DNA of 64,000 nucleotides. Source: a virus. Lineage: Duplodnaviria > Heunggongvirae > Uroviricota > Caudoviricetes. Shown one piece after another: positions 14,118 to 49,901 of the stretch; position 1 is the stretch's first letter; the number at the start of each line of letters is the position of its first letter. The translations under genes and the position numbers were made by a program. Where the stretch lies: positions 55,871 to 119,870 of IMG/VR virus record IMGVR_UViG_3300011399_000002; one strand, 5' to 3'. A model generated the notes under the pieces. That model saw only the letters and a list, made by a program, of their open reading frames with translations. It made no database searches and was not told the origin of the DNA.

Positions 14118-14174
14118 ACGAGTGTCGGAAACGCACGGGCAAATGACCCGGCAAAGAAAGAAATGGAGTAGAAA

Positions 14175-14720: not shown

Positions 14721-14928
14721 AATGGATGATCTGGATTTCTCCTATCTTACCGAAGAATTTCATCACTTTAGGGTTGGTCCCAGCAGCACTTGGATTGTTG
14801 AGGGATTGGTTGCAGATTGGTGCAAGAATAATCCAATCCCTGAGAATTTCGATGAGAATGACTCTTGGCATTGGTCCATTGCAGAGATGCATAACCTCCA
14901 CAATCAGTTGAAGGAAAGGAACAAGTAG
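14707..14928 (+). CDS. hypothetical protein
   Basis: 73-aa ORF, Trp-rich. Confidence 0.35.
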   Translation: MEQSKMDDLDFSYLTEEFHHFRVGPSSTWIVEGLVADWCKNNPIPENFDENDSWHWSIAEMHNLHNQLKERNK

Positions 14929-15119
14929 TGGAAGGGTTTTGGGTAAAGCAACTGAATATCAGAAACCTTCATCTGGCTATTGCTTGTAATGATAACGTTG
15001 CAGAAGCCATGATGAAGAGAAGCAAGAAGAAGTGGAGTATCAATTTCGATAGCCTTAGCGGTCAATTCTTCTTTACCCTTAGGATCAAGACAATTTTCAT
15101 CAATGTGGATTGGACGTAG
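14928..15119 (+). CDS. hypothetical protein
   Basis: 63-aa ORF. Confidence 0.25.
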   Translation: MEGFWVKQLNIRNLHLAIACNDNVAEAMMKRSKKKWSINFDSLSGQFFFTLRIKTIFINVDWT

Positions 15120-15496
15120 AAATGGCAACTCGTCGTGGTGATAATATTCCTGATGTGAGCGAATACGCTCATTGGAATGAAGAGGCTTATTCCATGTGGT
15201 ATGCGGAAAACCGCTACGATATGGAACACGCTGATGAAATCATTGAAGATGATTGGGATGATCAGGATCGTAATTACTACGAGCCTGAGCCCGATATCGA
15301 GATGGAGTTTGATACAGAAGAAGAAGCCCAAGCATTCTTTGATCGTCCTCAGGATTGGGGTTACTCAATTCCTGTGCATTCAATGTCAATGAGGTACTAC
15401 GAATACAAGAATAAGTGGGAAGTCGAAGGCTTTACCAAAGAACTTGGTGAGAAGGCAGTCGAAATCAATAGAAAGAGAAGGATGCGCGATGGATAA
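15110..15496 (+). CDS. hypothetical acidic protein
   Basis: 128 aa, Asp/Glu/Trp-rich. Confidence 0.4.
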   Translation: MDVEMATRRGDNIPDVSEYAHWNEEAYSMWYAENRYDMEHADEIIEDDWDDQDRNYYEPEPDIEMEFDTEEEAQAFFDRPQDWGYSIPVHSMSMRYYEYKNKWEVEGFTKELGEKAVEINRKRRMRDG

Positions 15497-15671
15497 TTGC
15501 AATGCCTATTTCGATGGCATGTTTGCTGGTTTCATGTGCATGAGAAAGAAAGAGCATGGTGGTAAGTTTCATCTTTGGTTTATCAAGGGGCAGGGAAACA
15601 ACAGCCACAATAGAATTTACTGGACTGACGAGAAAAACTCTTGGAAGTCAATGTACAGAAAGGCTAAGTAA
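15444..15671 (+). CDS. hypothetical protein
   Basis: 75-aa ORF. Confidence 0.35.
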   Translation: MVRRQSKSIEREGCAMDNCNAYFDGMFAGFMCMRKKEHGGKFHLWFIKGQGNNSHNRIYWTDEKNSWKSMYRKAK

Positions 15672-15672
15672 A

Positions 15673-15936
15673 ATGGCTACCATGCCGGAATACCTCAATG
15701 TTGAGAAGTACGTTGCAGAAATTCTCAACTATGAGCATGTTATCGAAGCAACCCGTGAATTGATCACGGTCATCAATCAAGATACGGAGGAAAATCTCCC
15801 CATCAAAGAAATTAAGTCCCTTCGTAATAAGTACGGAACTGGTTGGACAGTTTGGGCTATTATGGATAATGGCAATCCCTATAAGTATGCAATGTATATC
15901 ACCGAAGATGGTCAGATCATTGCGGATGGGTTTTAA
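15673..15936 (+). CDS. hypothetical protein
   Basis: Start moved to ATG 15673 (MATMPEYL) after stop of upstream ORF. Confidence 0.4.
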   Translation: MATMPEYLNVEKYVAEILNYEHVIEATRELITVINQDTEENLPIKEIKSLRNKYGTGWTVWAIMDNGNPYKYAMYITEDGQIIADGF

Positions 15937-15938
15937 AG

Positions 15939-16169
15939 ATGGATTTGGATACAGATCACAGAAGCACTTGGAGTCATCAAATTCAAGCAACTAGTTATGG
16001 AGCGGCTGTAGATACAGCAATTCTTGTACTAGGCAAGCAACTAAATAAGCATATTGTACCTGATGAGGTTTGTGCTGTTGGTCCTTTTCCTATCACAATG
16101 CGCGAGGGCGCAGTAAATCGCTATAACAATTTCGATGGTGTTTGGGACGTTACAATTAGGTGGTATTAG
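15939..16169 (+). CDS. hypothetical protein
   Basis: 76-aa ORF. Confidence 0.35.
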   Translation: MDLDTDHRSTWSHQIQATSYGAAVDTAILVLGKQLNKHIVPDEVCAVGPFPITMREGAVNRYNNFDGVWDVTIRWY

Positions 16170-16406
16170 ATGTTGGATAAGAAAGACGTTCTCACTACAA
16201 TCCATCGTACACTTAGGGATCACACCCCTCGTCCACAATTCCCTGAGTTTTCCCAACACTTTGCAGAGGGTTCTGAAAGTAGTTTCATCACAATTCTTTG
16301 TAATTGCAGCGATATGGAGGATATGCATCCAGACGTTTATCGTGAGCATCTAGCAGCAGAATTGTTCCGGGCAATGGATGAATTGGAGCAGGATACAAAT
16401 GAGTAA
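16170..16406 (+). CDS. hypothetical protein
   Basis: 78-aa ORF, TAGATG junction. Confidence 0.4.
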   Translation: MLDKKDVLTTIHRTLRDHTPRPQFPEFSQHFAEGSESSFITILCNCSDMEDMHPDVYREHLAAELFRAMDELEQDTNE

Positions 16407-16737
16407 CATTAGCCAAGAGCATTGGGAAGACGTTATCCCTGATCCTAATGAGGATGGGGTTGAGGCTTATCTGAGTTTTTACGATAGGCTCCATAAATTC
16501 ACCCCCGGTGAGCGTATCGATAGTAGATACGGTTCATATTATCAGTGCACATACACTCTACATAGAAGGGATGGAACGCCATACGTTTGTAATGGCTCTA
16601 GTCACGACTCAATGCATGAGCCTATGGATTGCTGTCATTGTAAGCATGGAGTTTATCTTCATACTTCTTATGATATTCCATGTGGAAGATGTGAAATGGA
16701 GTCGTCTTTTGACGGGCCTTGGGATGACGACGAGTAA
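16399..16737 (+). CDS. hypothetical Cys-rich protein
   Basis: CNGSSHDSMHEPMDCCHCKHG ... CGRCE; start set at internal ATG 16399. Confidence 0.4.
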   Translation: MSNISQEHWEDVIPDPNEDGVEAYLSFYDRLHKFTPGERIDSRYGSYYQCTYTLHRRDGTPYVCNGSSHDSMHEPMDCCHCKHGVYLHTSYDIPCGRCEMESSFDGPWDDDE

Positions 16738-16738
16738 T

Positions 16739-16879
16739 ATGCCCCAACTTATCAAAGAGTGGGAAAAGAAACTAAAGGGGTTAGATGAAGAAGAATTCCT
16801 AGCAGCCCTAGTTGCTTTTGAAGTCGAGAAAGCCCGCAGGATGCGGGAATTGATGGAGGAAACGAAAAATGCCGAGTAA
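16739..16879 (+). CDS. hypothetical small protein
   Basis: 46 aa MPQLIKEWEKK..., starts 2 nt after previous stop. Confidence 0.3.
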   Translation: MPQLIKEWEKKLKGLDEEEFLAALVAFEVEKARRMRELMEETKNAE

Positions 16880-17111
16880 TACGGTTGCTGATCTAGAGTT
16901 GGCTCTGTCTGGTAAGGGATATCACTGGATTAAAACATACGATCAAGAGAAGGGTATCTGTGTTGTAAAAGCAACGCGCGATATTGGGGGATCAACAATC
17001 GTTTCAAAGAATTCTTCTAGGTCAAGTCTTTGGTCCGCTTATAAGAGGGCTCTAGAGTTGACTTTGGAGCAACTAAATGACTACGAGAAAGCCGCAGGAA
17101 AGACCTTCTGA
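16869..17111 (+). CDS. hypothetical protein
   Basis: 80-aa ORF. Confidence 0.4.
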   Translation: MPSNTVADLELALSGKGYHWIKTYDQEKGICVVKATRDIGGSTIVSKNSSRSSLWSAYKRALELTLEQLNDYEKAAGKTF

Positions 17112-17489
17112 AATGGCTGGTGAAGATAGTCACCTAGAGTCTGATTACGAAGATAGGTTTATCGCTGATACAGATATTGACGAGGAGATTGATGAAGATA
17201 TCGACTGGGATGGTGGTCCAGTAGATTTCACCGAAGAGTGGTTTTAGTTAGTTCCTAAGTTCATCCATAGCACACTTCACAAATATTTGCTTTATCCTAG
17301 TGAAGTGTGCTAAAATGAGGCTAGGAACCTCAGGTGGAAAAAAAGAGAGCAGTGTGATATCGCACGTTTTTCCATCTAAGTAACATGATGATTGCGGCTA
17401 TAAAAGGGGCGATACTTTTATAGTACCTATATCGTCCATATCATGTTATCCTCCGTGACGGCTCCGGTTATCCGTCGCTAAAATTCTAT

Positions 17490-17565
17490 GGCCCCTTAGC
17501 TCAATGGTTAGAGCATTTGTCTTATACACAAACGGTTCTAGGTTCGAATCCTAGAGGGGCTACCA
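17490..17565 (+). tRNA. tRNA-Ile (anticodon UAU)
   Basis: Manual cloverleaf: acceptor GGCCCCT/AGGGGCT, D GCTC/GAGC, anticodon stem TTTGT/ACAAA loop CTTATAC, T-arm CTAGG-TTCGAAT-CCTAG, encoded CCA. Confidence 0.7.
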
Positions 17566-17675
17566 AATAAATTGGGACTGTGTATCGGTTATTGCTGGGG
17601 CAATAACCTTCGGGACCTCCCGTCCGCTCCAACAAAGAGTCACAGATAAGTTGTGAGCATCCGAAAGAAAATGGA

Positions 17676-17873
17676 GTGATAATCTTGGCAAACTTCAAGA
17701 GAAAGAAGAAGAAGCAATACTGGCATGTAACTTGTTGCCGTGGTGAAGCAACAAGAATGGGAGGAAACTCGCGGGATAGGTTCCCTGATAAGATGTACCG
17801 TCAACCTCAAATGTATGTTTACAATGAACGTGACCCTGAGAGATACATTCATCAGAAAGTGAAGTACGAATGA
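17676..17873 (+). CDS. hypothetical basic protein
   Basis: 65 aa, KRKKKKQY. Confidence 0.3.
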   Translation: MIILANFKRKKKKQYWHVTCCRGEATRMGGNSRDRFPDKMYRQPQMYVYNERDPERYIHQKVKYE

Positions 17874-18271
17874 AATTCAAAGTCTCTGATATCAATGATG
17901 ACGATCCTGAGATTTGGGTAAGTGTATTCGGGCGCAAGATAAAGACTGCTGCCGATGCATTTGAATTTCTCTATGAGCATCCAAACGCTTATGATCACGA
18001 TGATCAAAATGAATGGGATAAACTCACACTAAAGGATCGCTGGTCTGAGTCTCATGGTCAATTCATTGAACACATGACTCTTAGTGTAAGTAAAAAGGGT
18101 GTTTGGCTAGAGACTGGTCCTATCTATTGGGAAGATCAATTCCCTGATATGTACAAGCCTAGATGGCACACCAATATGCACGATATCCGTCTTGATGTTG
18201 GTGCAAAGACCTTTGAGAAGGCTCTCATTAAACTGGCAAAGAAAGTGAGAAAGTATTACGGTGACTATTAA
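17870..18271 (+). CDS. hypothetical protein
   Basis: 133-aa ORF, ATGA overlap. Confidence 0.45.
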   Translation: MKFKVSDINDDDPEIWVSVFGRKIKTAADAFEFLYEHPNAYDHDDQNEWDKLTLKDRWSESHGQFIEHMTLSVSKKGVWLETGPIYWEDQFPDMYKPRWHTNMHDIRLDVGAKTFEKALIKLAKKVRKYYGDY

Positions 18272-18962
18272 ATATTACAAAGTCGGTGGCGCAGTAAGAG
18301 ATGAAATCCTTGGTGTTAGGTCCAAGGATATTGATTTCGCAGTCGAGGCAGATAGTTACGAGGAAATGCGTGACGATCTTCTCAGTAAGGGCTCAATCAT
18401 TTGGCAGGAGCGCCCTGAATTCTTTGCAATCAGGGCTAAGCATCCAGATTTTGGCCCGGTAGATTTTACCCTATGCAGAAAGGAAGGGTTCTACTCCGAT
18501 AATAGGCATCCCGATAGCGTTGAGATTGGTACGATCTATGATGATCTTGCCCGTCGTGACTTTACAGTCAATGCTATTGCTCTGGATTTTACTGAGACTT
18601 CCTCAACAACATTGATTGATCCTCATGGTGGCGTAATCGACATTTCTAAGAATTTGCTTAGGTGTGTTGGTTCTCCTGAGGAAAGATTTACTGAGGACCC
18701 TCTAAGAATTCTACGTGCAGTTAGATTTCATATTGTGCGCGGGTTTGATCTGGACTTTGATCTAGAGGTAAGTCTTAGTTCTTTCCCTCTAATTGATGGC
18801 TTGAAGAAAATCCCTCTAGAGAGAATTTACGAGGAACTAAACAAGTGCTTTGCTCATGATACTTGGAACACGCTAATGTTCCTTGATAAGCATGAGTACC
18901 TGAAAGATGTAATCTTCCTAGAAATGGGTCTGAAACTGGCCCCAAGAATTAATGGTGACTAA
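18261..18962 (+). CDS. tRNA nucleotidyltransferase (CCA-adding enzyme) head-domain protein
   Basis: Class II polymerase-beta NTase signature GGAVRDEILGVRSKDIDFAV at N-terminus, RDFTVNA; 233 aa. Confidence 0.7.
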   Translation: MTIKYYKVGGAVRDEILGVRSKDIDFAVEADSYEEMRDDLLSKGSIIWQERPEFFAIRAKHPDFGPVDFTLCRKEGFYSDNRHPDSVEIGTIYDDLARRDFTVNAIALDFTETSSTTLIDPHGGVIDISKNLLRCVGSPEERFTEDPLRILRAVRFHIVRGFDLDFDLEVSLSSFPLIDGLKKIPLERIYEELNKCFAHDTWNTLMFLDKHEYLKDVIFLEMGLKLAPRINGD

Positions 18963-21215: not shown

Positions 21216-21620
21216 TTGACAATTTCACTACAACAGTTGATGAAACGTGATAAGCAAATATGTCACGTATGCGAGAAACGAGTAGAAAGACTATCCGAAG
21301 CCTCGCGTGATCATAAAACCCCAAAGAAGTATGGGGGCACCAATAATCCTGAAAATCTAGCACTAGCACATAAATGGTGTAACAAAGAAAAGGGTCATAA
21401 GATATTCCGTGCAGAACAGCATGGAACAGGATGGGTTGTAGTATCCCCTGATGGAGATATAGCATCAGATGAATATGAAACACACGTAGAAGCATTTGAA
21501 ATTGCACAAGCCATGAACGGAGATAAGATGTACATGGATGACAATTACGGAAGTAAGGGAGCCTATGAGCAGGGATCGGATATTATCATCATCCGTAGAG
21601 CATCGGATAATCCAATGTAG
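21216..21620 (+). CDS. HNH endonuclease
   Basis: CHVCEKR ... DHKTPKKYGGTNNPENLALAHKWCNKEKG HNH motif. Confidence 0.7.
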   Translation: MTISLQQLMKRDKQICHVCEKRVERLSEASRDHKTPKKYGGTNNPENLALAHKWCNKEKGHKIFRAEQHGTGWVVVSPDGDIASDEYETHVEAFEIAQAMNGDKMYMDDNYGSKGAYEQGSDIIIIRRASDNPM

Positions 21621-28228: not shown

Positions 28229-28431
28229 GTGCATACTATGAACTCATTAGAACTGAGTTTATCAACTTTGAGTATTCAGGTGAGAGTATTCAAGTTTGTC
28301 TAAATTGTGGTATAGAGATACAGGATGGTGAACGTATTCTAAGAGAAGTATTTAGAGTTATGGGGCATGATGATCATCTAGTATCTCTATGGCATATTCC
28401 TTGTTGGTATAGTGTGGAGACTGTAGAGTGA
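28225..28431 (+). CDS. hypothetical protein
   Basis: 68 aa, ATGA overlap. Confidence 0.4.
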   Translation: MSAYYELIRTEFINFEYSGESIQVCLNCGIEIQDGERILREVFRVMGHDDHLVSLWHIPCWYSVETVE

Positions 28432-29090
28432 AAGAATATCACAAGATTGACTCAGTATATAAGAGAGATGAAAGAGGAAAGTTTCTACTTGGTGAATTCT
28501 CTCGTCCTGAGTTTGAGTATCTAAAAGACCTTCCTTGGCTATGGACAGAGAAGATTGATGGTACTAATATCAGGGTAATGTGGAAGCCTGATGCTGCTTT
28601 TCCTGATGAGCCCTATATTAGTTTTGGAGGTAAGACTGAAAATGCTCAAATTCCCACTAAACTATATAGCCATCTAGCAACAACGTTTGCTCCATTGATG
28701 AATCAACTAATTGATACATTTGGAGAGACAGAAGTTTGTCTTTATGGTGAGGGATATGGAGCAGGAATTCAGAAGGGTGGAGGAAACTACTCTCCTGATC
28801 AAAAATTCATTCTCTTTGATGTAAAGATCGGAGATTGGTGGTTGACTAGGGAGAACGTAGAGGATATTGGGCGTAAGTTAAATATTCCTGTTGTACAACT
28901 AGGTCCACGCTATACTCTTTCTGAGATGATTGAGTATGTTGAACAAACTGCTAGGCTTCTAGAAGGAGCCCCATTTTCTAATATTGGAACAGCAAAAATT
29001 GAGGGTTGGGTAGGAACACCTGCTATTCCTCTATTTGCACGTAATGGTGATCGTATTATTACCAAGGTTAAGTATAGGGACTTTAAGTAA
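28428..29090 (+). CDS. RNA ligase-like nucleotidyltransferase (Rnl2-type)
   Basis: Motif I WTEKIDGTNIRV (KxDGxN), downstream YGEGYGAGIQKGG; size of an Rnl2 adenylyltransferase domain. Confidence 0.55.
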   Translation: MKEYHKIDSVYKRDERGKFLLGEFSRPEFEYLKDLPWLWTEKIDGTNIRVMWKPDAAFPDEPYISFGGKTENAQIPTKLYSHLATTFAPLMNQLIDTFGETEVCLYGEGYGAGIQKGGGNYSPDQKFILFDVKIGDWWLTRENVEDIGRKLNIPVVQLGPRYTLSEMIEYVEQTARLLEGAPFSNIGTAKIEGWVGTPAIPLFARNGDRIITKVKYRDFK

Positions 29091-30314: not shown

Positions 30315-30520
30315 TAAGGGAGATAGGGGTAGTATCTGTATAGAAGGTACTGTCAGTGAAACTGTTGCCGATATAAAAAGCGCACAGTTACGCACAAAAT
30401 TAGCCAAATGAATAAAAACAAAGCCATTTATGACACAAAATCGTGCATAAATGGCTTTTTTATTGCATTATGTGTGCAATCCCTATTTCATTGTATATTC
30501 CCTTCCATATCCATATCCGT

Positions 30521-30540
30521 GAGCCAATGGAGCGTGGGTT
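30521..30540 (+). repeat. GAGCCAATGGAG cassette motif copy 1
   Basis: GAGCCAATGGAG-cgtgggtt-ATATAA-GGTACTA; downstream 8-bp hairpin ATATAAGG/CCTTATAT. Confidence 0.6.
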
Positions 30541-30591
30541 ATATAAGGTACTACCTTATATTCACCATATTTTGATCCATATCCTTATTTT

Positions 30592-30610
30592 GAGCCAATG
30601 GAGAGAGGGC
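30592..30610 (+). repeat. GAGCCAATGGAG cassette motif copy 2 (divergent 3-prime half)
   Basis: TGAGCCAATGGAG-agagggca-TTTAGC. Confidence 0.5.
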
Positions 30611-30837
30611 ATTTAGCAAGGGCTGGGTATAAATTCGTGCACAAATCTCATAAAAAGTGTCATTTTACTGTATATGCCGATACAAAATAAAAATCGAATT
30701 AGAATGGAGTCCAGTTACGTAGAGTATATACAAAAAAGAACCATATCCATATACTATGGTATATACCTGCACCTTCATCTGTTGAGATTAACCCTGGCCC
30801 ATTCTTGCTGACATTAGTGCTTTCAATAAAGAAGCAT

Positions 30838-30866
30838 TTGACACCATATTCGACCTGTGATATAAT
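30838..30866 (+). promoter_or_regulatory. consensus sigma70 promoter for cassette-1 gene
   Basis: TTGACA-17 nt-TATAAT, followed by ~100-nt leader with GTACCGC...GCGGTAC hairpin. Confidence 0.65.
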
Positions 30867-30971
30867 CAGGGTACCGCAGATGCGACAGGGCGGTACTTAA
30901 CAACTGAATAGGGTCAGGAATTAGTGGGACTGATTGAACCTGTGATTTCACAAAGAAAGGTTCAACCTGAA

Positions 30972-31268
30972 ATGACCACCTACACTATCGCCAAGATTCG
31001 CGTCGTTACTCCCACCGAAACCATGCGCGAGAAGCATCCAGATCGTGCATTCACTGTCTTCGGTCAATTCTTCAATGAGAAGGGTGACAAGTTGTCGATC
31101 ACTAATAAGGTGATCACAACGGAAGACATTCTGCATCCTGAATTCAACATCGATGTTGCAAAGGGATTGCTCACAATTCATTCTGGCGAAAGGGGACGCA
31201 AAGCAGCGGCTTCAATCACACAGAATGACGTTAACGACATTCTCACTGCAATCCGCAAGTCCAAGTAA
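30972..31268 (+). CDS. cassette-1 small protein, paralog family B
   Basis: Start at MTTYTIAK aligns with MALVTYFV of ORF 31756; shared GERGRKA and LTI blocks. Confidence 0.5.
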   Translation: MTTYTIAKIRVVTPTETMREKHPDRAFTVFGQFFNEKGDKLSITNKVITTEDILHPEFNIDVAKGLLTIHSGERGRKAAASITQNDVNDILTAIRKSK

Positions 31269-31378
31269 ATTCAATTAGTTTCACTTCTCCTGATCCTATT
31301 TAGTTGTTAATCATTCAGTTTCAATTAAGTAATTTAATAAAGTAAATTAAATTAAATTTCAATTTATTTACATAAGCC

Positions 31379-31398
31379 GAGCCAATGGAGTGGGTTCC
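31379..31398 (+). repeat. GAGCCAATGGAG cassette motif copy 3
   Basis: GAGCCAATGGAG-tgggttcc-ATATTG-GGATACTA. Confidence 0.6.
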
Positions 31399-31592
31399 AT
31401 ATTGGGATACTACATTGAAATTCATATCCTGTTCCATAAAATGAATTAGATTTGGTCGCGTTTACATAAACGAATTACAATTCGGATGCGGTTACATATC
31501 CATATCCATATCCATGCACCAATTGGTGAGTGCCAATCTTTCTCCGATTGATGATGCCGCGAAGGTTGCGAAGCCCTCCCAGCGGTGTAACC

Positions 31593-31629
31593 GAACCGCA
31601 ACCTTACCGCTACCCTACCGCAATTGACG
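31593..31629 (+). promoter_or_regulatory. ACCGCAA direct-repeat / TTGAC element (cassette 2)
   Basis: gaACCGCAACCttACCGCtaccctACCGCAATTGACg ~125 bp upstream of ORF 31756. Confidence 0.4.
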
Positions 31630-31755
31630 CGAGAGGCACAATCCGCGAAGATACACCTATCACCAACGAGGAACGCTCCTCCCGGTGAGAACCTTAACAA
31701 GAGAATAGGAACAGGGGACCTACCCGCCGAACAGGCAGAAAGGTAAGGTCCACCA

Positions 31756-32124
31756 ATGGCGCTCGTTACGTATTTCGTTGACAAGATGCGCGCGGTTCCC
31801 CCGACTGGTAAGGTCGCGGAGAATAACCCCGAGCGTGTCCTCACCGTCAATGGCGTTTTCTACAGCACCAAGATTGACGAGAACGGCAATCGGGTTCGCA
31901 ATGAGAAGATGTCCTACACTACCAAAGCCGTCGATATCGAAGATGTCCTCGCAGGGGCGGAAGTCGATCTAGACGCCGGTACGCTCACCATTCCCGCAGG
32001 GGAGCGGGGACGCAAAGCCGATCCGGGGCTGGACGCTAATAGCGTCACGTCGCTACTCAATTCCATCCGCAATCCAATTCCTGAGCCCGAGCCGACACCG
32101 GCACCGGCCACCAAGAGCAAGTAA
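31756..32124 (+). CDS. cassette-2 small protein, paralog family B (GC-rich copy)
   Basis: Paralog of 30972-31268; AGGTAAGG RBS; C-terminal PEPEPTPAPA tail. Confidence 0.5.
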   Translation: MALVTYFVDKMRAVPPTGKVAENNPERVLTVNGVFYSTKIDENGNRVRNEKMSYTTKAVDIEDVLAGAEVDLDAGTLTIPAGERGRKADPGLDANSVTSLLNSIRNPIPEPEPTPAPATKSK

Positions 32125-32250
32125 CTAATTGGTCCCCTGTTCCTATCTCTCACCTAATCCTATTCTGTAACGTAATTGTAACGTAATTGCAACCATTACA
32201 AATACATTACAATTTCATTACAAAATCGAATTAGAACAGGCGTTCGTTAC

Positions 32251-32270
32251 AGCCAATGGAGTGAGGACCC
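32251..32270 (+). repeat. GAGCCAATGGAG cassette motif copy 4
   Basis: cAGCCAATGGAG-tgaggacc-CTGTAA-GGGGACTA. Confidence 0.55.
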
Positions 32271-32325
32271 TGTAAGGGGACTATGATCATCAGAATGATG
32301 AGAATAGGCCAATCCTTCGGATAGT

Positions 32326-32370
32326 CCGCAACCTTATCGCAACCATATCGATACCGAACCGCAATTGACA
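32326..32370 (+). promoter_or_regulatory. ACCGCAA direct-repeat / TTGACA element (cassette 3)
   Basis: CCGCAACCttatCGCAACCatatcgatACCGaACCGCAATTGACA. Confidence 0.4.
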
Positions 32371-32439
32371 TAGGGAACAGGAACAGGCATAGTACGCATA
32401 TCAGGTAAGTCACCTGAGCCACGGAGAAAGTAACAGAAT

Positions 32440-32697
32440 ATGGCAAGATATACGGAACCTGAAATCTCTACCGATCGTATCCATGATGACGGACCGTCAT
32501 TCGATATCACCCGGACAGAGATTGTCGGAACGGTTCACCTCTCCACAATGGGGAAGGATAGTCCCGTTAGCGTAGCGTTCGGGATCATCGCATCCTATCT
32601 CAATGAGAACCTTCGTTGGGACGGCGATACCGAAATCTCATTCACGGTTCCTGAGGGTCATACCTTCACAATCAACGCTACTCCCGCTCGTCAATAG
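32440..32697 (+). CDS. cassette-3 small protein
   Basis: 85-aa ORF after AGGTAAGT...GGAGAAAG RBS region. Confidence 0.45.
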   Translation: MARYTEPEISTDRIHDDGPSFDITRTEIVGTVHLSTMGKDSPVSVAFGIIASYLNENLRWDGDTEISFTVPEGHTFTINATPARQ

Positions 32698-32802
32698 CCT
32701 GTAGGATCAACGTTCCTGCGCCTATCTCCCCGATGCAATCTACAAAGTAAATTGTTGATTGAAACGAGAGATTGCATCAAATGGGCGCAGGAATAAATCC
32801 TA
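32698..32802 (+). terminator. long imperfect hairpin (terminator-like) after cassette-3 ORF
   Basis: Nested inverted repeats TGTAGGAT/ATCCTACA, TTCCTGCGCC/GGCGCAGGAA, GATGCAATCT/AGATTGCATC. Confidence 0.35.
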
Positions 32803-32995
32803 CACAATGTCTTAAAGATAGACGAAAGGTAGGGTGATTAATATCCGACGATAGATATAGAGTACGCTAGGTAAATGTACTGGAAATGCGTACACTGGTA
32901 GTCAAAAACCTGATACTACCATCCGAATAAGTAAATGCATACTAATACAAATGAATAACTATTCATAAAAATGAATAAATATACATAATTGAATT

Positions 32996-33015
32996 GAGCC
33001 AATGGAGTAGGAACC
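32996..33015 (+). repeat. GAGCCAATGGAG cassette motif copy 5
   Basis: GAGCCAATGGAG-taggaacc-TATATG-AGGTACT, flanked by AATTGAGCC/GGCTCAATT inverted repeat. Confidence 0.6.
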
Positions 33016-33216
33016 TATATGAGGTACTGGCTCAATTGTTGAGCCTGAGATTGAAAGCGCTCAATTGAATTACAAATTGAATTGCGTTCAGGTTCGAATT
33101 CGAATTGAATTGCATTCTTGTTCTGTTCTATACGCACAGGCGCCACGCGCACGCACGCGCACGGACCTATAGGATGCGCCCCGGAGAAAGGTTGCGATAG
33201 GCGAAATCGTTAGCTA

Positions 33217-33256
33217 CCGAACCGCAACCATTTCGTAACCGTACCGCAATAGACAA
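33217..33256 (+). promoter_or_regulatory. ACCGCAA direct-repeat element (cassette 4)
   Basis: ACCGaACCGCAACCatttcgtAACCGtACCGCAATAGACA. Confidence 0.35.
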
Positions 33257-33343
33257 TCCTCTCGCAGAGGAGCATGATGTGCACATCAGATCGATACCCG
33301 ATCTGAGCCGGGAGGCAGGAAAGCCTCACAGTCAACAGAAAGG

Positions 33344-33649
33344 TTGGCACATAGGATGGGCGTCTTTCTCGATCAGGCGGTTCTGGTTCTGGAACTGGCA
33401 CCGGACGATACGCTGGCCGCGTGGACTGAGGACTACCTCAATCGCGCTCCGGCATTCTTCTCCCCCGACGCCGATCCGTCGCAGGTGATGGCAGACTCTC
33501 TGCTGGGCAACCTGTTGGAGAACGAGAACCGGCAGCGCGGGAACGCTGCTACGGCTCGCAAGGTCTTCGCCGTCGTGAATGACGCGATTGGCACCGGCTA
33601 CGCCTCCTATGAGGATTACCTCGCGTCGATCCTCGACAACGGCTTCTAG
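33344..33649 (+). CDS. cassette-4 small protein
   Basis: 101-aa ORF, GC-rich. Confidence 0.4.
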   Translation: MAHRMGVFLDQAVLVLELAPDDTLAAWTEDYLNRAPAFFSPDADPSQVMADSLLGNLLENENRQRGNAATARKVFAVVNDAIGTGYASYEDYLASILDNGF

Positions 33650-33657
33650 CCTAGCCT

Positions 33658-33688
33658 AGGGGAGAGGGATGCATAATCCCTCTCCCCT
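33658..33688 (+). terminator. strong hairpin terminator after cassette-4 ORF
   Basis: AGGGGAGAGGGAT-gcata-ATCCCTCTCCCCT, 13-bp perfect stem. Confidence 0.5.
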
Positions 33689-33781
33689 ATACAATGCATA
33701 TACAATGCATATGTATACTGTATAATCATACATGCATGAATATGCATGATGATGAATAATTATGCATCGAACATTTGTTCT

Positions 33782-33800
33782 GAGCCAATGGAATGAGAAC
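33782..33800 (+). repeat. GAGCCAATGGAG cassette motif copy 6
   Basis: GAGCCAATGGAa-tgagaacc-ATGATG-AGGGACTA. Confidence 0.55.
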
Positions 33801-33964
33801 CATGATGAGGGACTATGGATGAATTGAACAAGCGTTCGAATTCGAATTCGAATTGGATTTCGTTCTTGTTCCCGTTCTAGTGCATGGCTATGGATGGGTA
33901 GCATGGATTGGATGAGCATGGATGAGCCATGACCCCATGAGGGTAGGGCTCATCTATGAGAATG

Positions 33965-33998
33965 TAACCCAATCGCAACCTTTCTGCTACTTGACAAT
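33965..33998 (+). promoter_or_regulatory. CGCAACC / TTGACA element (cassette 5)
   Basis: aaCCCAATCGCAACCtttctgctacTTGACAatg. Confidence 0.35.
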
Positions 33999-34068
33999 GA
34001 CGCATGGTGCGGTACGATGGGCGTAGCCCATCGAGGTTCGATGGTAGATGGTAGAAAGGGTTAGATAG

Positions 34069-34401
34069 ATGATCTACTTTGAGAATGCGAAGCGTACAAT
34101 CGATGCGACAAACGTGCCGTTTCTCAACGGATCGAACGTCGGACCCGGCTTTATGATCGATGACGCCTATACGATGGAAAGTGAGCGCGCACGGTACAGC
34201 GAAGCGCACGATACCTTGACGCTTTGGGTCCAGCGCAAGGAATTCGCAGGATCGTACGCGAAGCGCAACATGCATGATCTGCTCTACGTGTTGGGTGACG
34301 AATTCGACCGCAACGAATTCGAAGCGTTCCTCGCCTATGAGAATGAGACAGATATGATGGTGACAGCCTACCGTCATGAGATGACAGTCGCGGGGTTCTA
34401 G
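34069..34401 (+). CDS. cassette-5 small protein
   Basis: 110-aa ORF, RBS GAAAGGGTTAGATAGATG; preferred over antisense ORF 33877-34407. Confidence 0.45.
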   Translation: MIYFENAKRTIDATNVPFLNGSNVGPGFMIDDAYTMESERARYSEAHDTLTLWVQRKEFAGSYAKRNMHDLLYVLGDEFDRNEFEAFLAYENETDMMVTAYRHEMTVAGF

Positions 34402-34570: not shown

Positions 34571-34605
34571 CTAGGGGATTGTATATCTATACAGTCCCCT
34601 AGTAT
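34571..34605 (+). terminator. hairpin CTAGGGGA...TCCCCTAG
   Basis: 8-bp stem, 16-nt loop, ends the cassette array. Confidence 0.35.
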
Positions 34606-34609
34606 TCAA

Positions 34610-35440
34610 ATGAATACTTATGCATAATATGACTTTGCCCGACTGTTACAGTCTACAAATAGTGGAACCAAAATCTGCAACTTTTTAGATAACTCTATTC
34701 CCATCATAAATGATGGTAACGCTCTAAATTTACATGGTAATATCGACCAAGGCAAAAGAAAAGCCCTACTAGGGATCAAAAGAGTCCGGGGGGAAACTCT
34801 CAATCAACCTAGTAGGGCTTTCCTGTGTAGGGCTAAAAATTGATCAGCCGTGAGACAGAAGTCTTTAGCACTACACAGGATCAGCGTCACAATTGGACGC
34901 CCATATTAAGTTAGGTGACTGTCGTTTATGACAGCCGCTATCCGTTAGGATAGTTAGGTGGGGAGTGGGATTCAAGTTTACCCACATGACTCGACAGGAC
35001 TACTTTTCTCAAAGAAGTATTTACGAGTCAACCAACCGTTAGCCTTGACGCGAATTCATTCTCTTTGATGCTATCGTAAAGTTTGAATTCAGGCAACGCT
35101 TCGGCTCCGGTCAAAGAGCCTCCGTCATACTTTTACCTACTGCACTACTTGTTTAAGGTAATGTGTTTAGGTTTGACTAATCTCAGAAGTTTTACCCTTG
35201 ATTAGCCGACGTTATCTGCGTCCGATTGTACGTTACGCGACTGACCCTGTGGCAGTCACTTTCCGTCATCCCCCTGCAACCGCCGCTAAGCGGCTGCATT
35301 GGTTGTACTATAGGGCACCTGAGCGATCCCGTCAAGTTAAGGTTCCTTAACCGAGTTTCAGGAGCGTGTAAGTTTGAGTAAAATTGCGCTTGACCGCAGA
35401 ATAGACCCGTGGTAGGATAGTAGGACGTACCCGGTATGGG
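34610..35440. other. ORF-poor structured non-coding region
   Basis: No credible ORF; 14-bp hairpin AAAGCCCTACTAGG...CCTAGTAGGGCTTT (34762-34821), CCGCCGCTAAGCGGC palindrome, many shorter stems. Confidence 0.3.
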
Positions 35441-35659
35441 TTGAGAGGGGAGGAGGGGAACAGGGCCAAATTGTCGCATGAAAAACGCTGTTCTCGTTGT
35501 AGGAAAGACTTTCCCCAAACAGAATCCTTCTTCTACGTCAGCCGTCAAGGACGTAAAAAGGCTCCCGGCTTCCAGTCTTATTGTATCCCTTGCACTAAGA
35601 CTGTGAATGCGGAAAACAAACTCCGAAGAAAGATAGTACAGTACAAAAGAGGGGTTTAA
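35441..35659 (+). CDS. hypothetical basic zinc-ribbon protein
   Basis: CSRC...CIPC, Lys/Arg-rich, 72 aa. Confidence 0.35.
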   Translation: MRGEEGNRAKLSHEKRCSRCRKDFPQTESFFYVSRQGRKKAPGFQSYCIPCTKTVNAENKLRRKIVQYKRGV

Positions 35660-42688: not shown

Positions 42689-43198
42689 TTGATCCATGAG
42701 GCCCACATAACCCATGAGCAAGAGGTTTATAAACTATCCCCTATGAAAAAAGACAAAATTATTGACTATTACATATTGGTCTACAAGCCCAGCCATCCAG
42801 CAGTGGTAGGTGACGGATATGTACCAGAGCAGATATTAGTAGCAGAGAGCGAATTAGGACGCTTCCTCTATCCTGATGAATCAGTAAGGCATAAAAACGG
42901 CGATCCCCAAGATAACAGGCCCTCAAACTTAGAGGTTGTATCCGCTAGTCACGGATACAGGTTAGTTAACCTTGGTGACGAGCATATTGAGCCACGCAAG
43001 TCCGCTGGTAAAACTTTTATGCCTTGCAAATTTCAAAAACCGTGCTGGAAAGAAGTTAGAGCGCCTATAGCCCGTGAGCATAAGGTGTATCTTCCGTACA
43101 TATGCAGTTATCAGGAAGGTGGGGACGTTTACAAGTGTTCGCGCTTTTGGAGTTATGTAGATAAAACATTAGTAGAGCAAGGGAGCGATGAAAATTGA
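42689..43198 (+). CDS. HNH homing-endonuclease-like protein
   Basis: RHKNGDPQDNRPSNLEVVSASHG HNH motif; immediately upstream of RNR. Confidence 0.6.
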   Translation: MIHEAHITHEQEVYKLSPMKKDKIIDYYILVYKPSHPAVVGDGYVPEQILVAESELGRFLYPDESVRHKNGDPQDNRPSNLEVVSASHGYRLVNLGDEHIEPRKSAGKTFMPCKFQKPCWKEVRAPIAREHKVYLPYICSYQEGGDVYKCSRFWSYVDKTLVEQGSDEN

Positions 43199-45236: not shown

Positions 45237-46278
45237 AGTCTTGCCCGAACAGGGCATACAGATCATGGAGAGTAGCAATGGTAGGTGGGTTGCGGTTTGT
45301 CCGTTGCATGACGGCGACCACGACCCATCTTTTACCATTTATACTCACAATGATACATATTTCTGCTTCGGGTGTAGTGCTTGGGGCGATCCAGTCAAAT
45401 TCCTTTGTGACTACAAAGGATGGGACACAAAACAAGCCCAAGAGTACGTAGGAGTAGACTATGAGTACAAGAAAGCAGAAAAAGCACGAATCATCAAGAC
45501 CCGTGATGCTCTACGTACATGGGGATTTCTCAGTTATGTTACCGGAATCTATCATGATAACCTTTTACGAACAACTGGTGCGAGGGATTATCTCCGCAGG
45601 AGAGGACTCAGTGATGACACAATACGAATACAGAGAATGGGGTACACTGACGGAAGAGTTTTACGAATTGAATTCGCTAACGATTACAGTATCGCCCACG
45701 AATGCGGACTAATAAACGCGCAGGGTTACGAGGTAATGAGTCACAGAATCACAATTCCAAACTTCTGTGACCCCTTACGTGAGCGTGTAGACTTCATCAT
45801 GGGTAGAACGGTCACAAATGACCGCATTAAGTACCTTGGAACAAGGATGCCTAAGCCTATCTTTGGATTCTACGAGTTTGCAAAGTCTCCTATTCTGCTT
45901 ATAGCGGAAGGTCAGTTTGATTGGCTAATGTTGAAGCAATGGGGCTTTCCTGCTACGGTTTTATCTGGTACGAATCTTCCCAAGTACCATCATGCACTTC
46001 TTAGGGATAAATTCGTAGTAATTGTACCCGACAATGATGCTGCTGGCAAACTGTCTGCGGTAAAGTTGCACTCAGCACTGCGGAATAGTGTCATTCTTGA
46101 TTATTCCTCTCTTGGAGTCAAGGACGTTGGGGAGTTGGGGGCAAAAGAAGATGGACAAGAGAGTTTCTTACAAATCATACAGGAGCAAGAATGGTACAAG
46201 GATATACTTTTGTCGAAGGCTCATTGGATGAAGTGGTTGCCCACTTCTCTACAGATAACATCATTGGACTTGACCTAG
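45217..46278 (+). CDS. DnaG-type DNA primase
   Basis: CHC2 zinc finger CPLHDGDHDPSFTIY..CFGCSAWGD, TOPRIM LIAEGQFD ... PDNDAAG. Confidence 0.75.
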   Translation: MSKSLLEVLPEQGIQIMESSNGRWVAVCPLHDGDHDPSFTIYTHNDTYFCFGCSAWGDPVKFLCDYKGWDTKQAQEYVGVDYEYKKAEKARIIKTRDALRTWGFLSYVTGIYHDNLLRTTGARDYLRRRGLSDDTIRIQRMGYTDGRVLRIEFANDYSIAHECGLINAQGYEVMSHRITIPNFCDPLRERVDFIMGRTVTNDRIKYLGTRMPKPIFGFYEFAKSPILLIAEGQFDWLMLKQWGFPATVLSGTNLPKYHHALLRDKFVVIVPDNDAAGKLSAVKLHSALRNSVILDYSSLGVKDVGELGAKEDGQESFLQIIQEQEWYKDILLSKAHWMKWLPTSLQITSLDLT

Positions 46279-47984
46279 AGACTACGGGATTAAGCCCGAT
46301 TGATTCTAAGATCATTCTGTGTCAGATAGGATTCAGGGATCATACATACGTTATTGACACTAGCAAGGTAGACATTGCTCCCCTTCTACCTTTCTTTACA
46401 AGTAACAGGTGGAAGAAGATCATCCAGAGAAGCGAGTTTGAACGCAAGTTCATCAAAAAGCATCATGGAGTAAAGATCAACAACGTATTTGATACGTGGT
46501 TGGCAGAGAAACTGATTACAACGGATACCAAGGCTCCATCATCGCTTGCATTCTTAGCTAAGAAGTATGCGGATATGGACTTAAACAAGGCTGTACGTAT
46601 GGGCTTCACAGAGGCTAGAGCAGTCTCTATGTTCACAGAAGAGGAGTTACAATACGCAGCAGACGACGTTATCTGTTTGTTTCCCATCTATGATGGGCAG
46701 TCCAAGATCATTAGGGAGAAAAGCCTAGACTATATTGCAGAGGTTGAGTTTGAGTGTGCACAGGTTGTCGCTAACATGGAGTTGGTAGGAGTACCAATTC
46801 TCATAGACAAGTGGCATAGTATCATCGAGGAGACTCGTCGGGAGCATGAGGAATCTCGATTGAGGATGAACGGATATCTATTTGATAGTGGGGATAATCA
46901 GGAACAGATTGGAATGTTTGTTCGTGATAGTATAAATCTAAATTCACCTAAGCAGATAACAGCAGCATTTGCTAACCTAGGCATAAATGTCACAAGTACA
47001 GCAGAGCGAGAGATTGCACTAATTGATCATCCAGCAGCAAAGGAGTTATTGAAGTATCGTGGTTTACAAAAGATTCTATCCTCATACGGAGAGTCATTCC
47101 TTGGTCATATCCATCCCTTCACCGGAAGAATACACGCTGACTTTCTCCAACTTGGTACTGAAACTGGAAGATTTTCTTGCAAGGAACCCAACCTACAGCA
47201 AATGCCAGATAACTTCCGTCAATGTGTCGGAGGTTCCGGGTACTCGATCATCGCGGCAGATTATTCTCAAATTGAGTTACGAATCCTCGCAGAATTAAGT
47301 GGTGATCCTAACTTCCTAAAGGCTTTCACTTCTGGTGAAGACCTGCACAAGTCAACCGCTGCTACAATGTTCAACATCGACCTCGATAAGGTCACTAAGG
47401 AACAACGCTTCATTGCCAAGACCATTAACTTCGGTCTAGCGTATGGAATGGGCAGCAATAAACTCATGGATATCCTGAACGCAGAGGCAGAGAAGAACGG
47501 GAGCAAGAAATATACACAATTCCAGACCAAGGCACTTGTCTCCAAGTACAGAACAGCATATCGTAAGGTTATTGACTGGCTAGATGAGGCTGGACAAACT
47601 GCGATACGAAAGGGCTACTCTGAAACCATGCTGGGGCGCAAGAGATTCTTCTCCCGTCCTGCACAAGGTATATCAGAGGGAGAATTTGATATGCAGATGG
47701 CAGGGATCAGACGGCAGGGAGCAAATGCCCCAATTCAAGGAACAAACGCAGACATTACCAAACTGGCTATGATAGAGATAGACACAGAGTTAGCAAAGTA
47801 TGGATTTTCTGGTGATATCATTATTCAGGTTCATGATGAAATCGTTGTACTAGCCCGTAAAGACCAAGCAGAGAATATTAAGATAATTGTAGTGGATGCA
47901 ATGATTGCAGCCGGTGAGAAAGTGCTTAAAACGGTCCCCGTTAAGGTGGAAGCGTATATCTCTGATGTTTGGAAAAAAGGATGA
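46191..47984 (+). CDS. family A DNA polymerase (PolA-like, with 3-prime-5-prime exonuclease domain)
   Basis: Exo I IGLDLETTGL, motif A DYSQIELR, motif B KTINFGLAYGMG, motif C QVHDEIV. Confidence 0.8.
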   Translation: MVQGYTFVEGSLDEVVAHFSTDNIIGLDLETTGLSPIDSKIILCQIGFRDHTYVIDTSKVDIAPLLPFFTSNRWKKIIQRSEFERKFIKKHHGVKINNVFDTWLAEKLITTDTKAPSSLAFLAKKYADMDLNKAVRMGFTEARAVSMFTEEELQYAADDVICLFPIYDGQSKIIREKSLDYIAEVEFECAQVVANMELVGVPILIDKWHSIIEETRREHEESRLRMNGYLFDSGDNQEQIGMFVRDSINLNSPKQITAAFANLGINVTSTAEREIALIDHPAAKELLKYRGLQKILSSYGESFLGHIHPFTGRIHADFLQLGTETGRFSCKEPNLQQMPDNFRQCVGGSGYSIIAADYSQIELRILAELSGDPNFLKAFTSGEDLHKSTAATMFNIDLDKVTKEQRFIAKTINFGLAYGMGSNKLMDILNAEAEKNGSKKYTQFQTKALVSKYRTAYRKVIDWLDEAGQTAIRKGYSETMLGRKRFFSRPAQGISEGEFDMQMAGIRRQGANAPIQGTNADITKLAMIEIDTELAKYGFSGDIIIQVHDEIVVLARKDQAENIKIIVVDAMIAAGEKVLKTVPVKVEAYISDVWKKG

Positions 47985-48305: not shown

Positions 48306-48390
48306 GGAAGGTATCCGAACGGTGAGGAAGCTGTTTGCTAAACAGTCGGGCAGAAATGTCTTGCGGGTTCGACCCCCGTGCCTTCCGCCA
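48306..48390 (+). tRNA. tRNA-Ser (anticodon GCU)
   Basis: Acceptor GGAAGGT/GCCTTCC, anticodon stem GCTGT/ACAGT loop TTGCTAA, long variable arm, T-loop TTCGACC, CCA encoded; D-region atypical. Confidence 0.6.
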
Positions 48391-48462
48391 TTTTATCAGA
48401 GGTGCGCCCAAGATAAAAAGAGTATAGTAGGTTAATTAATCTAGGCTTATAGAGAGGAAAAT

Positions 48463-49461
48463 GTGTTAGGGTTTCTAGCGTTTCTAGTCGTAGTGCTTAT
48501 TTTTGGAGCGATTACGGCATTTTTTATCCTCAGACGCTTAAACTATGAGCGTAAGTGGGCAACACTAAATGAATACGGTAATAAAGAAAAGGTAGAGCGT
48601 GATCCGCCTAGCATTGTACCTGCGATTGTTTTTGCAGTCGTTGGGTTTGTCCTAATCATAGGAACAGGCGGAATCAGAGAGATTCCAGCGGGCCACGTAG
48701 GGGTTATTACTTCATTCGGTAGAGTTACCGAAGGAACATTACCATCGGGTCTAACATACGTTATGCCCGTCGTTAATCAGGTTGTCATTCTTGACACCCG
48801 TGTCCAGTCTTACGAATTTACTGACCTACAGGGCGCAACAAGCGATACTCAGGCAGTTACGCTTTCAGGTTCAGTTAACTACCGAATCGATGGAGCAACG
48901 GCTTGGAAGTTGTATCGTGATGTTGGTGAAGACTTTGCAGTCAGAGTTTTCCAGCGTCCAGCAGATACGGCACTAAAGACAATTACACCTAGATATACTG
49001 CTACTGATATCATCGGTAAGCGTGACGAAATTGCTTCATTAGCAACGCAACTTCTCCGTCCATCCGTTGAGCAGTACGGTATCTCTGTAGAGGCATTCTA
49101 TGTCTCTAACATTGGCCTAAATCAAGCATTCCTAAATGCAGTTGAAGCGAAGCAGATTGCTAATCAGCAAGTGCTAACTCAGAAGCAGATTACCGCGCAA
49201 AAGGAAGAGCAGAAGAAGCAAGCAAAGATTGATGCAGAAGGACGAGCAGATGCCGCTAGAGCAGCAGCAAATGGTGAAGCCGATGCAATTCGATCACTAG
49301 CAGATGCACAGGCAGATGCAAACAAGTTGCTAAATAACTCACTAACACCTGAGTTAATTCAGTATACATTGATCAACAAGTTAAGTCCTACGATTAAGAC
49401 TATGATTCTTCCTGATGGACAGAATTTCATCCTTGATCCTAAGGCACTTCTTGGTCAGTAA
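48463..49461 (+). CDS. SPFH/band-7 (stomatin/prohibitin-like) membrane protein
   Basis: N-terminal TM helix then band-7 core and Ala/Gln-rich coiled coil. Confidence 0.7.
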   Translation: MLGFLAFLVVVLIFGAITAFFILRRLNYERKWATLNEYGNKEKVERDPPSIVPAIVFAVVGFVLIIGTGGIREIPAGHVGVITSFGRVTEGTLPSGLTYVMPVVNQVVILDTRVQSYEFTDLQGATSDTQAVTLSGSVNYRIDGATAWKLYRDVGEDFAVRVFQRPADTALKTITPRYTATDIIGKRDEIASLATQLLRPSVEQYGISVEAFYVSNIGLNQAFLNAVEAKQIANQQVLTQKQITAQKEEQKKQAKIDAEGRADAARAAANGEADAIRSLADAQADANKLLNNSLTPELIQYTLINKLSPTIKTMILPDGQNFILDPKALLGQ

Positions 49462-49464
49462 TAG

Positions 49465-49552
49465 GGAAGGTTGGCTGAGTCTGGCTTAAAGCGATAGTCT
49501 TGAAAACTATTGGTGTAACAACCCGTGGGTTCAAATCCCACACCTTCCTCCA
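49465..49552 (+). tRNA. tRNA-Ser (anticodon UGA)
   Basis: Perfect acceptor GGAAGGT/ACCTTCC, anticodon stem ATAGT/ACTAT loop CTTGAAA, long variable arm, T-arm GTGGG-TTCAAAT-CCCAC, CCA. Confidence 0.75.
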
Positions 49553-49820
49553 TTTATTATGAAAGGGAAAACAATGGCTAACGTAACTGCGGACGATTTG
49601 GTTCCCACATTCTGTGGAGTGTGTGGTACTCGTTTGGTAGAGTTTAGAATTGCTTCGGTTTCGGGTTATGACATTTATACTGGAACGCCCCTCAGCAATG
49701 AGAGTGTTTCTCGATCTTGTCCAAACCCAACGATCACAAAGAGTGGTCGATTTAGCGCACCGTCAACTACCCAGCATCGAACCTATCGGTTTGAAAAGGA
49801 TAGTTGGGTCTAATTACAGT

Positions 49821-49894: not shown

Positions 49895-49901
49895 ATAAGT
49901 T

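Follow-up and report, generated by a model that had tools for sequence, protein, structure and literature searches.

We characterized a repeated motif that heads a run of small genes in a 64,000-nucleotide (nt) stretch of a Caudoviricetes genome, hereafter the window (positions 55,871 to 119,870 of IMG/VR record IMGVR_UViG_3300011399_000002), which is part of a phage of ~120 kb (ena:ERZ27267736:k141_281400). The core of the motif is the 10-mer AGCCAATGGA, which we call box A. A pattern search of the 64-kb window found six exact copies, all on the + strand at 30522-33792, and no copy elsewhere in the 64 kb on either strand, against a chance expectation from dinucleotide-preserving shuffles of 0.19 on average and 2 at most. 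The 10 kb beyond the window held no copy either, so the restriction of the motif to its array, which the original prediction had raised, holds over the 64 kb and the further 10 kb.

Cassettes and motif copies

The array consists of five small + strand open reading frames (ORFs), each with a box or a tandem pair of boxes at its head. A cassette comprises the motif, a sigma70-like promoter 114-253 nt downstream of it, a leader, the small ORF and a 3' hairpin, and the motif itself lies beyond the 3' hairpin or terminator of the unit before it, 111-299 nt past the preceding stop codon; no copy follows the last cassette. The predicted layout of one motif group per cassette, upstream of each ORF, is therefore borne out. 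Cassette 1 carries a promoter at 30838-30866 (TTGACA-N17-TATAAT, a 12/12 match) before an ORF of 98 amino acids (30972-31268) from a family that we term F1, which marks the array in all relatives, and cassette 2 encodes an F1 paralogue of 122 amino acids (31756-32124) behind a promoter-like site read from the sequence at 31624-31652 (TTGACG-N17-GAAGAT, with a weak -10). The ORFs of cassettes 3, 4 and 5 encode 85 (32440-32697), 97 (33356-33649) and 110 amino acids (34069-34401), and are preceded by promoters at 32365-32393 (TTGACA-N17-CATAGT), 33250-33278 (TAGACA-N17-CATGAT) and 33991-34018 (TTGACA-N16-TACGAT), respectively, all on the + strand. No Pfam or PHROGs family matched any of the five ORFs (0/5), including ORF4 with its ~61% GC, and a search for other genomic contexts of ORF5 returned only the same phage. 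Sliding-window GC is 45-61% over the array ORFs versus ~38% in the flanking genome.

Relatives were sought through the F1 proteins (ORF1 and ORF2), a route independent of the motif; a profile search gave 25 homologues, and ~25 non-redundant syntenic loci were obtained from Logan, ENA, JGI and IMG/VR metagenomic contigs (loci are numbered with the prefix L). The homologue of ORF3 in L137 occupies the equal array position. Other routes to relatives were tried and rejected: a direct scan of IMG/VR with the bipartite motif returned only single chance matches and collagen-like coding repeats, a two-copy pattern scan of GTDB genomes returned only coding tandem repeats with no F1 homologue and no host clue, and relatives reached through the neighboring RNA ligase were ~50% identical but lacked the motif.

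The array begins with its first two motif copies ~50 nt past the intrinsic terminator of the upstream gene block (30414-30470, + strand, 19-nt arms and a T run), and the matching hairpin in L124 is preserved despite base changes on both arms. Copy 1 (30521-30553; GAGCCAATGGAG, CGTGGGTT, ATATAA and GGTACTA) and copy 2 (30592-30624), which follows 71 nt later with a degenerate second half, form the pair at the head of cassette 1; the counterpart of copy 2 by position in relatives is the variant AGCCAATGCA. Cassettes 2 to 5 are headed by copy 3 (31379-31411), copy 4 (32250-32282, CAGCCAATGGAG...), copy 5 (32996-33028, with AATTGAGCC and GGCTCAATT on either side) and copy 6 (33782-33814, ...GGAA), respectively, again all on the + strand, and the 13-mer GAGCCAATGGAGT of copy 3 is kept in the corresponding spacer of L124 and L137. 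The first half, GAGCCAATGGAG, is exact at 30521, 30592, 31379 and 32996 and has one mismatch at 32250 (CAGCC...) and at 33782 (...GGAA).

Sequence reading and pattern searches thus agree with the original prediction on the six places, on the single strand and on the constant spacing between the two halves of the motif. The consensus proposed for the second half fits copies 4, 5 and 6 well and copies 1-3 only loosely, copy 1 deviating by one base, copy 2 being without ACT and copy 3 having one base too many; a relaxed bipartite pattern (box, N10, WWW, N3, GG) matches 6/6 copies at ≤1 mismatch, where 0.04 are expected. Flanking inverted repeats had been reported for most copies: the quoted repeats are real (30541-48/30554-61 and 32990-98/33029-37), but each is peculiar to a single copy. 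The statement that the motif matches no named family stands: it has no Rfam hit, and searching the literature for its sequence brought up unrelated primers alone.

Conservation of box A and recombination junctions

Box A was present in nearly every array found through F1, amounting to ~160 copies in 130 unique 40-nt contexts, with 40 copies in the first 8 loci and 21 in 6.5 kb of L141. L272, L279 and L284, which carry more distant F1 genes, had no copy at ≤1 mismatch. The polarity seen in the window recurs, with 86 copies on the + strand and 4 near-matches on the - strand in the JGI contigs (73.7 kb), and where one cassette gene of L141 is inverted, the flanking boxes are still on the + strand. 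In the loci inspected against gene calls or by sequence reading the copies are intergenic and lie in the array spacers, which typically hold one group of 1-3 copies, and pairs are often 32-40 nt or ~70 nt apart. Box A is kept across phages whose marker proteins are only 37-58% identical, and the surrounding linker sequence is not: in alignments of the spacers of the window and L124, box A forms an island of identity in diverged sequence, together with a few other modules that also stand out (e.g., CGAATTAGAA...GTTACATA).

Conservation within the box is uneven. Among the 130 unique copies, chosen at ≤1 mismatch to the 10-mer, 48 mismatches fell at position 8 (G/A), 9 at position 5, 5 at position 9 and 4 at positions 3-4, and none at the remaining five positions, giving a consensus of AGCC-A/C/T-AT-G/A-G/C-A that is often followed by K-Y-G (+10..+12). 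Some lineages prefer particular variants: AGCCAATAGA in L269-L276, AGCCCATGGA in L266 and AGCCTATGGA in L131. Judged from sequence comparison, such unevenness points to the reading of individual bases and not to common descent alone.

Downstream of the box we found a weak but position-specific signature, with A/T at +20..+22 in ~105/130 copies, G at +26 in 75/130 and C at +29 in 57/130; GG occurs within +24..+28 in 60/130 copies versus 8-30 in shifted control windows. Upstream, T is favored at -2 (76/130), and A/T-rich tracts occur at -30..-20. The bipartite description therefore holds as a tendency across the family, but not in every lineage: copies of the GGATTACAA type in L125 and L134 have no second half, the box being fused directly to another module.

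The gene content past the two F1 cassettes differs among the arrays of relatives, and in pairwise BLAST comparisons the blocks of homology between related loci stop or start at box A. Block ends lay within 3 nt of the box edge in both sequences in 13 of 129 internal ends, whereas random placement within the arrays gave 0.1 such ends, with a maximum of 2 in 500 trials; after removal of duplicates the 13 reduce to about five locus pairs. Further linker repeats, about as long and abundant as box A or more so, did not behave in this way. Box A (AGCCAATGGA, ≤1 mismatch) had its 13 block ends among 160 occurrences, while ATGCGCATATGCGCA had none among 88, TATGCGCATA none among 128 and GTTCTGTTAC 2 among 72.

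The cleanest junction is at L273:654, where the left flank is that of L269:961 and L275:592, identical over 45 nt, and the right flank after the box is that of L269:1761 and L275:2339, with the switch inside the box; relative to these loci, L273 and L274 lack the intervening 800 nt (L269) or 1747 nt (L275). L274, from an independent sample, has the same junction as L273. We considered an assembly artefact as the cause and rejected it, as the repeat of 10-14 nt is far below k = 141 (from the k141_ names of the ENA contigs) and the junction occurs in two independent samples; the junctions would therefore be natural variants rather than misassemblies. Together, the conservation of box A across the family and the junctions at the box are the strongest evidence available, and the original prediction had missed both.

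Cassette transcripts, linker modules and genomic setting

The original prediction had placed the motif at the 5' end of each cassette transcript. The sigma70-like promoters speak against this, since they sit 114-253 nt further downstream. The two F1 genes carry, in addition, long-range inverted repeats between leader and 3' flank, at 30897-30919/31288-31310 around ORF1 and 31705-31720/32131-32146 around ORF2 (both + strand), and both 3' arms lie upstream of the next motif. The same pairing of leader and 3' flank of F1 genes (11-23 nt) recurs in L124, L131, L137 and L141 with different sequences. This stem begins at a conserved GAATAG(G), and its sequence varies among paralogues and phages with the arms remaining complementary, so that it looks like an mRNA-closing stem, maybe a processing or stabilizing element. 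The mature mRNA of an F1 cassette is probably closed by this stem, and because the stem ends before the next motif, the motif would not be part of the cassette transcripts initiated at the sigma70 promoters.

The predicted fold of F1 is a small beta-rich domain with a GERGRK loop and a C-terminal helix (predicted local distance difference test, pLDDT, 84), and no structural neighbors of it were found in PDB or BFVD. The F1 paralogous pair is kept in most related arrays long enough to hold both; L273 and L274 have one only.

Beyond box A, the linkers are mosaics of operator-like modules, which include the palindrome TTAAGAAATCTTAA, GAAC-N4-GTTC boxes, DnaA boxes (in L131) and ACCGC repeats. A second linker module of two units 21-22 bp apart, with the bipartite form CGAATTA(G/C)A-N8-9-GTTAC(A)TA, lies at 31444-31500 (+ strand; CGAATTA(G/C)A-N-GTTACATA) and also at 30690-30720 and 32222-32249, as well as at 421-450 and 1178-1235 of L124; it retains ~90% identity between the window and L124 amid diverged flanks. 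Repeats of (A)CCGC/TCGC with a period of ~11 bp abut the -35 on its upstream side in cassettes 2-5 (31586-31628, 32321-32370, 33206-33255 and 33963-33990), and L124 has such repeats as well; the phasing of these direct repeats suggests activator binding. Perfect GAAC-N4-GTTC palindromes stand beside motif copies at 32234-32245 and on either side of copy 6 (33769-33780 and 33826-33837), and also in L141, L143, L270 and L275. Their form is that of Gram-positive-type LexA boxes, which may point to the group of the host or to regulation of the array by the SOS response. In L131, two perfect DnaA boxes (TGTGGATAA; 3372-3380 and 3405-3413) lie immediately upstream of a cassette promoter.

The phage encodes a ribonucleotide reductase, a family-A DNA polymerase, a primase and a nicotinamide phosphoribosyltransferase, as well as an RNA ligase, a CCA-adding enzyme, a Ro60/Rsr-like protein and at least 10 tRNAs. 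A megablast search for a close deposited phage returned nothing, and nothing in the phage collection reaches 31% identity with the family-A DNA polymerase (46191-47984); the array belongs to a novel family of phages of ~115-125 kb with no close relative among deposited phages. Positions 1-7717 of the window map past the end of k141_281400, which points to another record of the same phage or to a circularly permuted genome.

Several further features were recorded in the genome. An RNA-repair-like set comprises the Ro60/Rsr (TROVE) protein (50408-51937), the RNA ligase (28428-29090), the CCA-adding enzyme (18261-18962) and ten tRNAs (48306-53273 and 58396-58550); the tRNA at 52818-52887 has the anticodon TCA and was called selenocysteine (SeC) or suppressor-like. 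Genes for HNH endonucleases lie at 21216-21620 and 42689-43198. After the last cassette, in a stretch of ~34600-35450 for which only short or overlapping ORFs are listed, a partial match to manA RNA (RF01745) occurs at 34955-35120 on the - strand (34.2 bits versus a gathering threshold of 55.2, E 6e-7), with several conserved blocks retained and one hairpin absent. L125 and the near-identical L126 and L127 have ~1.2 kb without called genes at the equivalent position. Just past the 3' end of the window, on the same contig, L289 carries an ORF of 1727 amino acids (12682-17865), which had no Pfam, PHROG or PDB-sequence match and is followed by a further loosely packed run of small genes without box A.

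What box A may be

Two conclusions are firm: box A is a functional, polar element, read sequence-specifically, that heads each cassette of a conserved array, and it is where cassette-level rearrangements resolve. On what kind of element it is, we lean, with slightly more doubt than confidence, toward a protein site in duplex DNA with a regulatory or insulating role, recombination being a consequence of the identity that linkers share. We arrive at this reading because only 10-13 bp are universal, because the tandem pairs, being conserved, speak more for cooperative binding than for frequent excision, and because the linkers are mosaics of other operator-like modules. A family-specific protein would bind duplex box A as a strong half-site and make weaker contacts about two helical turns downstream, at the A/T of +20..+22, the G of +26 and the C of +29, and the resulting polar complex would insulate or regulate the cassette behind the box, presumably at the level of transcription. 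As the only sequence common to otherwise divergent linkers, box A would also be where recombination between linkers resolves, in cis by unequal crossover or slippage and in trans by exchange between co-infecting relatives, so that whole promoter-plus-gene units would be deleted, duplicated or swapped.

In formal features only, such a site resembles the stoperators of mycobacteriophage L5, 13-bp asymmetric repressor sites that were reportedly described by Brown et al. in 1997: both are short, asymmetric, exactly conserved and intergenic, with one orientation to transcription. A temperate phage has its stoperators scattered over the whole genome, where its immunity repressor binds them. Box A, unlike them, is confined to one array of 3-7 kb and has no known repressor.

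Several observations weigh against a protein site of this kind. Neither a recombinase nor a MotA-like gene was found among the window ORFs screened, a set of ~50 compared with Pfam, PHROGs or NCBIfam that did not include every ORF, about half of the genome lying beyond the window. A simple operator would be expected closer to its promoter than the 114-253 nt that separate box A from the promoters. The number of independent junction events is small, with 1-2 that are clean and 3-4 in which homology merely ends at the box, and slippage at any short direct repeat could yield such deletions. The tandem pairs, 32-40 or ~70 nt apart, are also stably conserved, which implies that recombination at the box is not frequent.

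Box A lacks the defining features of the named systems to which we compared it, namely PeSLs (promoter-early stem-loops), attC sites, nut sites and MotA-box promoters, and the closest concept is the PeSL. As described for T4-type phages by Arbiol et al. (2010, PMC2839356) and Comeau et al. (2014, PMC4122927), PeSLs are repeated regulatory modules before genes without known function that mediate modular shuffling, and each of them compactly packs a promoter and a terminator stem-loop into tens of bases. The likeness is one of organization: both are repeated intergenic modules before small genes without known function in a plastic region, every gene is served by a sigma70-type early promoter of its own, and the junctions of indels or swaps fall at the repeated module. 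Box A shows this arrangement: the genes behind it have no known function, the region is plastic, and indel junctions between relatives fall at the motif. It differs in being an element of 10-13 bp that is not itself a sigma70 promoter (that lies 114-253 nt away) and has no consistent stem-loop, within linkers of 300-800 nt that hold several further modules. In the copies compared, no consistent -35/-10 overlaps or precedes the box, and a strong hairpin is found in a minority, three of them with a T run. The array is best read as a mobile regulatory cassette system that would be PeSL-like in function but built on a different element.

A more active role in exchange would make box A the target of a dedicated site-specific recombinase, or of a nicking or cutting endonuclease, that moves cassettes in an integron-like or homing-like manner in a large, probably virulent phage. 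The junctions lie precisely inside the box but not inside linker repeats of the same length, all copies are in direct orientation, cassette content varies among relatives with common linkers, the position-specific constraint implies a protein that reads the sequence, and the genome has the two HNH endonuclease genes noted above. Arrays of integron attC sites share with this one the small genes, the directly oriented sites with a short conserved core in variable sequence, and gain and loss at the level of the cassette. Box A is unlike attC, however, in that it forms no imperfect palindrome or hairpin: no covarying helix and no inverse core were found near the box, there are no reverse-complement copies in the arrays, and the core is AGCCAATGGA rather than GTTRRRY or RYYYAAC. 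The cassettes, often headed by tandem pairs, carry their own promoters, whereas those of integrons are promoterless, and among the ORFs screened no recombinase was seen that could stand for intI with its attI and Pc, nor any tyrosine or serine recombinase or transposase. The lack of an inverted-repeat core and of an attC-like fold, the conserved tandem pairs and stable F1a/F1b cassettes, which oppose frequent site-specific excision, and the mere handful of events observed all count against a dedicated enzyme, which we regard as unlikely. Were it correct, and we consider it doubtful, box A would be the crossover site of a phage-encoded, integron-like machinery for cassette exchange in large lytic phages, which would cut out, take up and rearrange entire promoter-plus-gene units at an asymmetric core of 10 bp, with an enzyme of unrecognized type; the F1 proteins, ubiquitous and without detectable fold relatives, would then be a candidate partner.

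A further alternative, which we also hold to be improbable, takes box A with its A/T patch and G-rich patch as a promoter for a phage-modified host RNA polymerase or a phage-encoded polymerase: an activator box with a weak -10, as in the MotA-dependent middle promoters of T4, and hence a second promoter upstream of the host-type early one. This was close to the original prediction of a promoter for a non-sigma70 holoenzyme, and the layout is compatible with it, with fixed polarity, one group per cassette upstream of the ORF, and a composite of ~32 bp whose parts keep a fixed spacing. Tracts rich in A/T occur at -30..-20 and immediately before the box, a minority of copies have TTG directly in front of it (TTGAGC; G occupies position -1 in 36/130), and some copies read TTGAGC-N16-18-TATxxx, in which the box could take the place of -35 and spacer and the A/T patch that of the melting region. 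GAAC-N4-GTTC boxes abut several copies, and LexA-type boxes often overlap promoters.

The MotA box of T4 is centered near -30, 11-13 bp upstream of a sigma70 -10 (TAnnnT). Box A resembles it as a conserved box in place of the -35, with an A/T-rich element at a short fixed distance, upstream of early genes that also have host-type promoters; it is unlike it in its spacing (8-10 bp versus 11-13 bp), in an A/T element that is not TAnnnT, and in a second half that is missing in some lineages. The A/T patch reads TAT-N2-3-GG, mostly without the -7 T of sigma70 and with G preferred at the last -10 position, and no consistent -35/-10 register was found. L125 and L134 copies have no second half, tandem copies 32-40 bp apart would overlap as promoters, and the motif is absent from the other ~60 kb of the window and the 10 kb beyond. 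No sigma factor, MotA- or AsiA-like factor or RNA polymerase was present among the ORFs screened, although a polymerase or activator encoded outside the window is possible. The sigma-like protein proposed at 3599-4096 did not hold up, with no sigma match in Pfam, PHROGs, NCBIfam or PDB sequences and a weak HTH_32 match (E 0.03) as its sole hit. We also tried, and rejected, a sigma70 promoter ending at or upstream of the box, which has no fixed register and only a loose cluster ~30 nt upstream in few loci.

A function at the RNA level, in which box A would serve in processing, in nut-like antitermination or in attenuation jointly with the hairpin frequently present behind it, is very improbable as a general account: the strand specificity of the box, a hairpin and T run directly after the box in three copies (L124:1111, L137:3739 and L268:963) and a promoter-like site 20-30 nt upstream of the box in L129, L131 and L141:9039 would fit, but the conserved RNA structure that the original prediction had offered as an option was sought by folds of single sequences, folding z-scores and a covariation scan and was not found. 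Fold energy over +7..+37 (mean z about -0.5) was indistinguishable from the upstream control (-0.76) and only marginally different from distant controls (p = 0.04), and the 130 copies showed no covarying helix in any fixed register, the best single pair of an all-pairs scan reaching z = 3.7 among ~400 tested, with no stack. The motif had no Rfam match, whether at the gathering threshold or with E relaxed to 5, and a conserved fold is ruled out by the AATAGA variants together with the variability of the sequence downstream. Many copies lie behind an intrinsic terminator, and in most copies no promoter separates terminator and box; in a comparison with lambda-type nut sites (boxA + boxB) there was likewise no conserved hairpin or loop, and most copies follow terminators without a spacer promoter. 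A role in RNA is possible for some copies. A mini-ORF starting from an ATG inside the box was rejected by eye, as the copies share no conserved frame and the ATG is missing from the AATAGA variants.

Small early genes without known function make up the regions in which phages keep genes for host takeover and counter-defense, and how such genes are exchanged is known in detail for few systems, such as the PeSLs of T4-type phages. Box A is a much shorter and more strictly conserved element that marks the heads of cassettes in an undescribed family present in many public metagenome samples, and in natural variants entire expression units have been acquired or lost with the breakpoint exactly at the box. 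It thereby gives a sequence tag for finding and delimiting cassettes in metagenomes and a defined DNA site with which to seek the protein that reads it, and it makes the array a case in which modular gene exchange beyond the T4 group can be put to the test.

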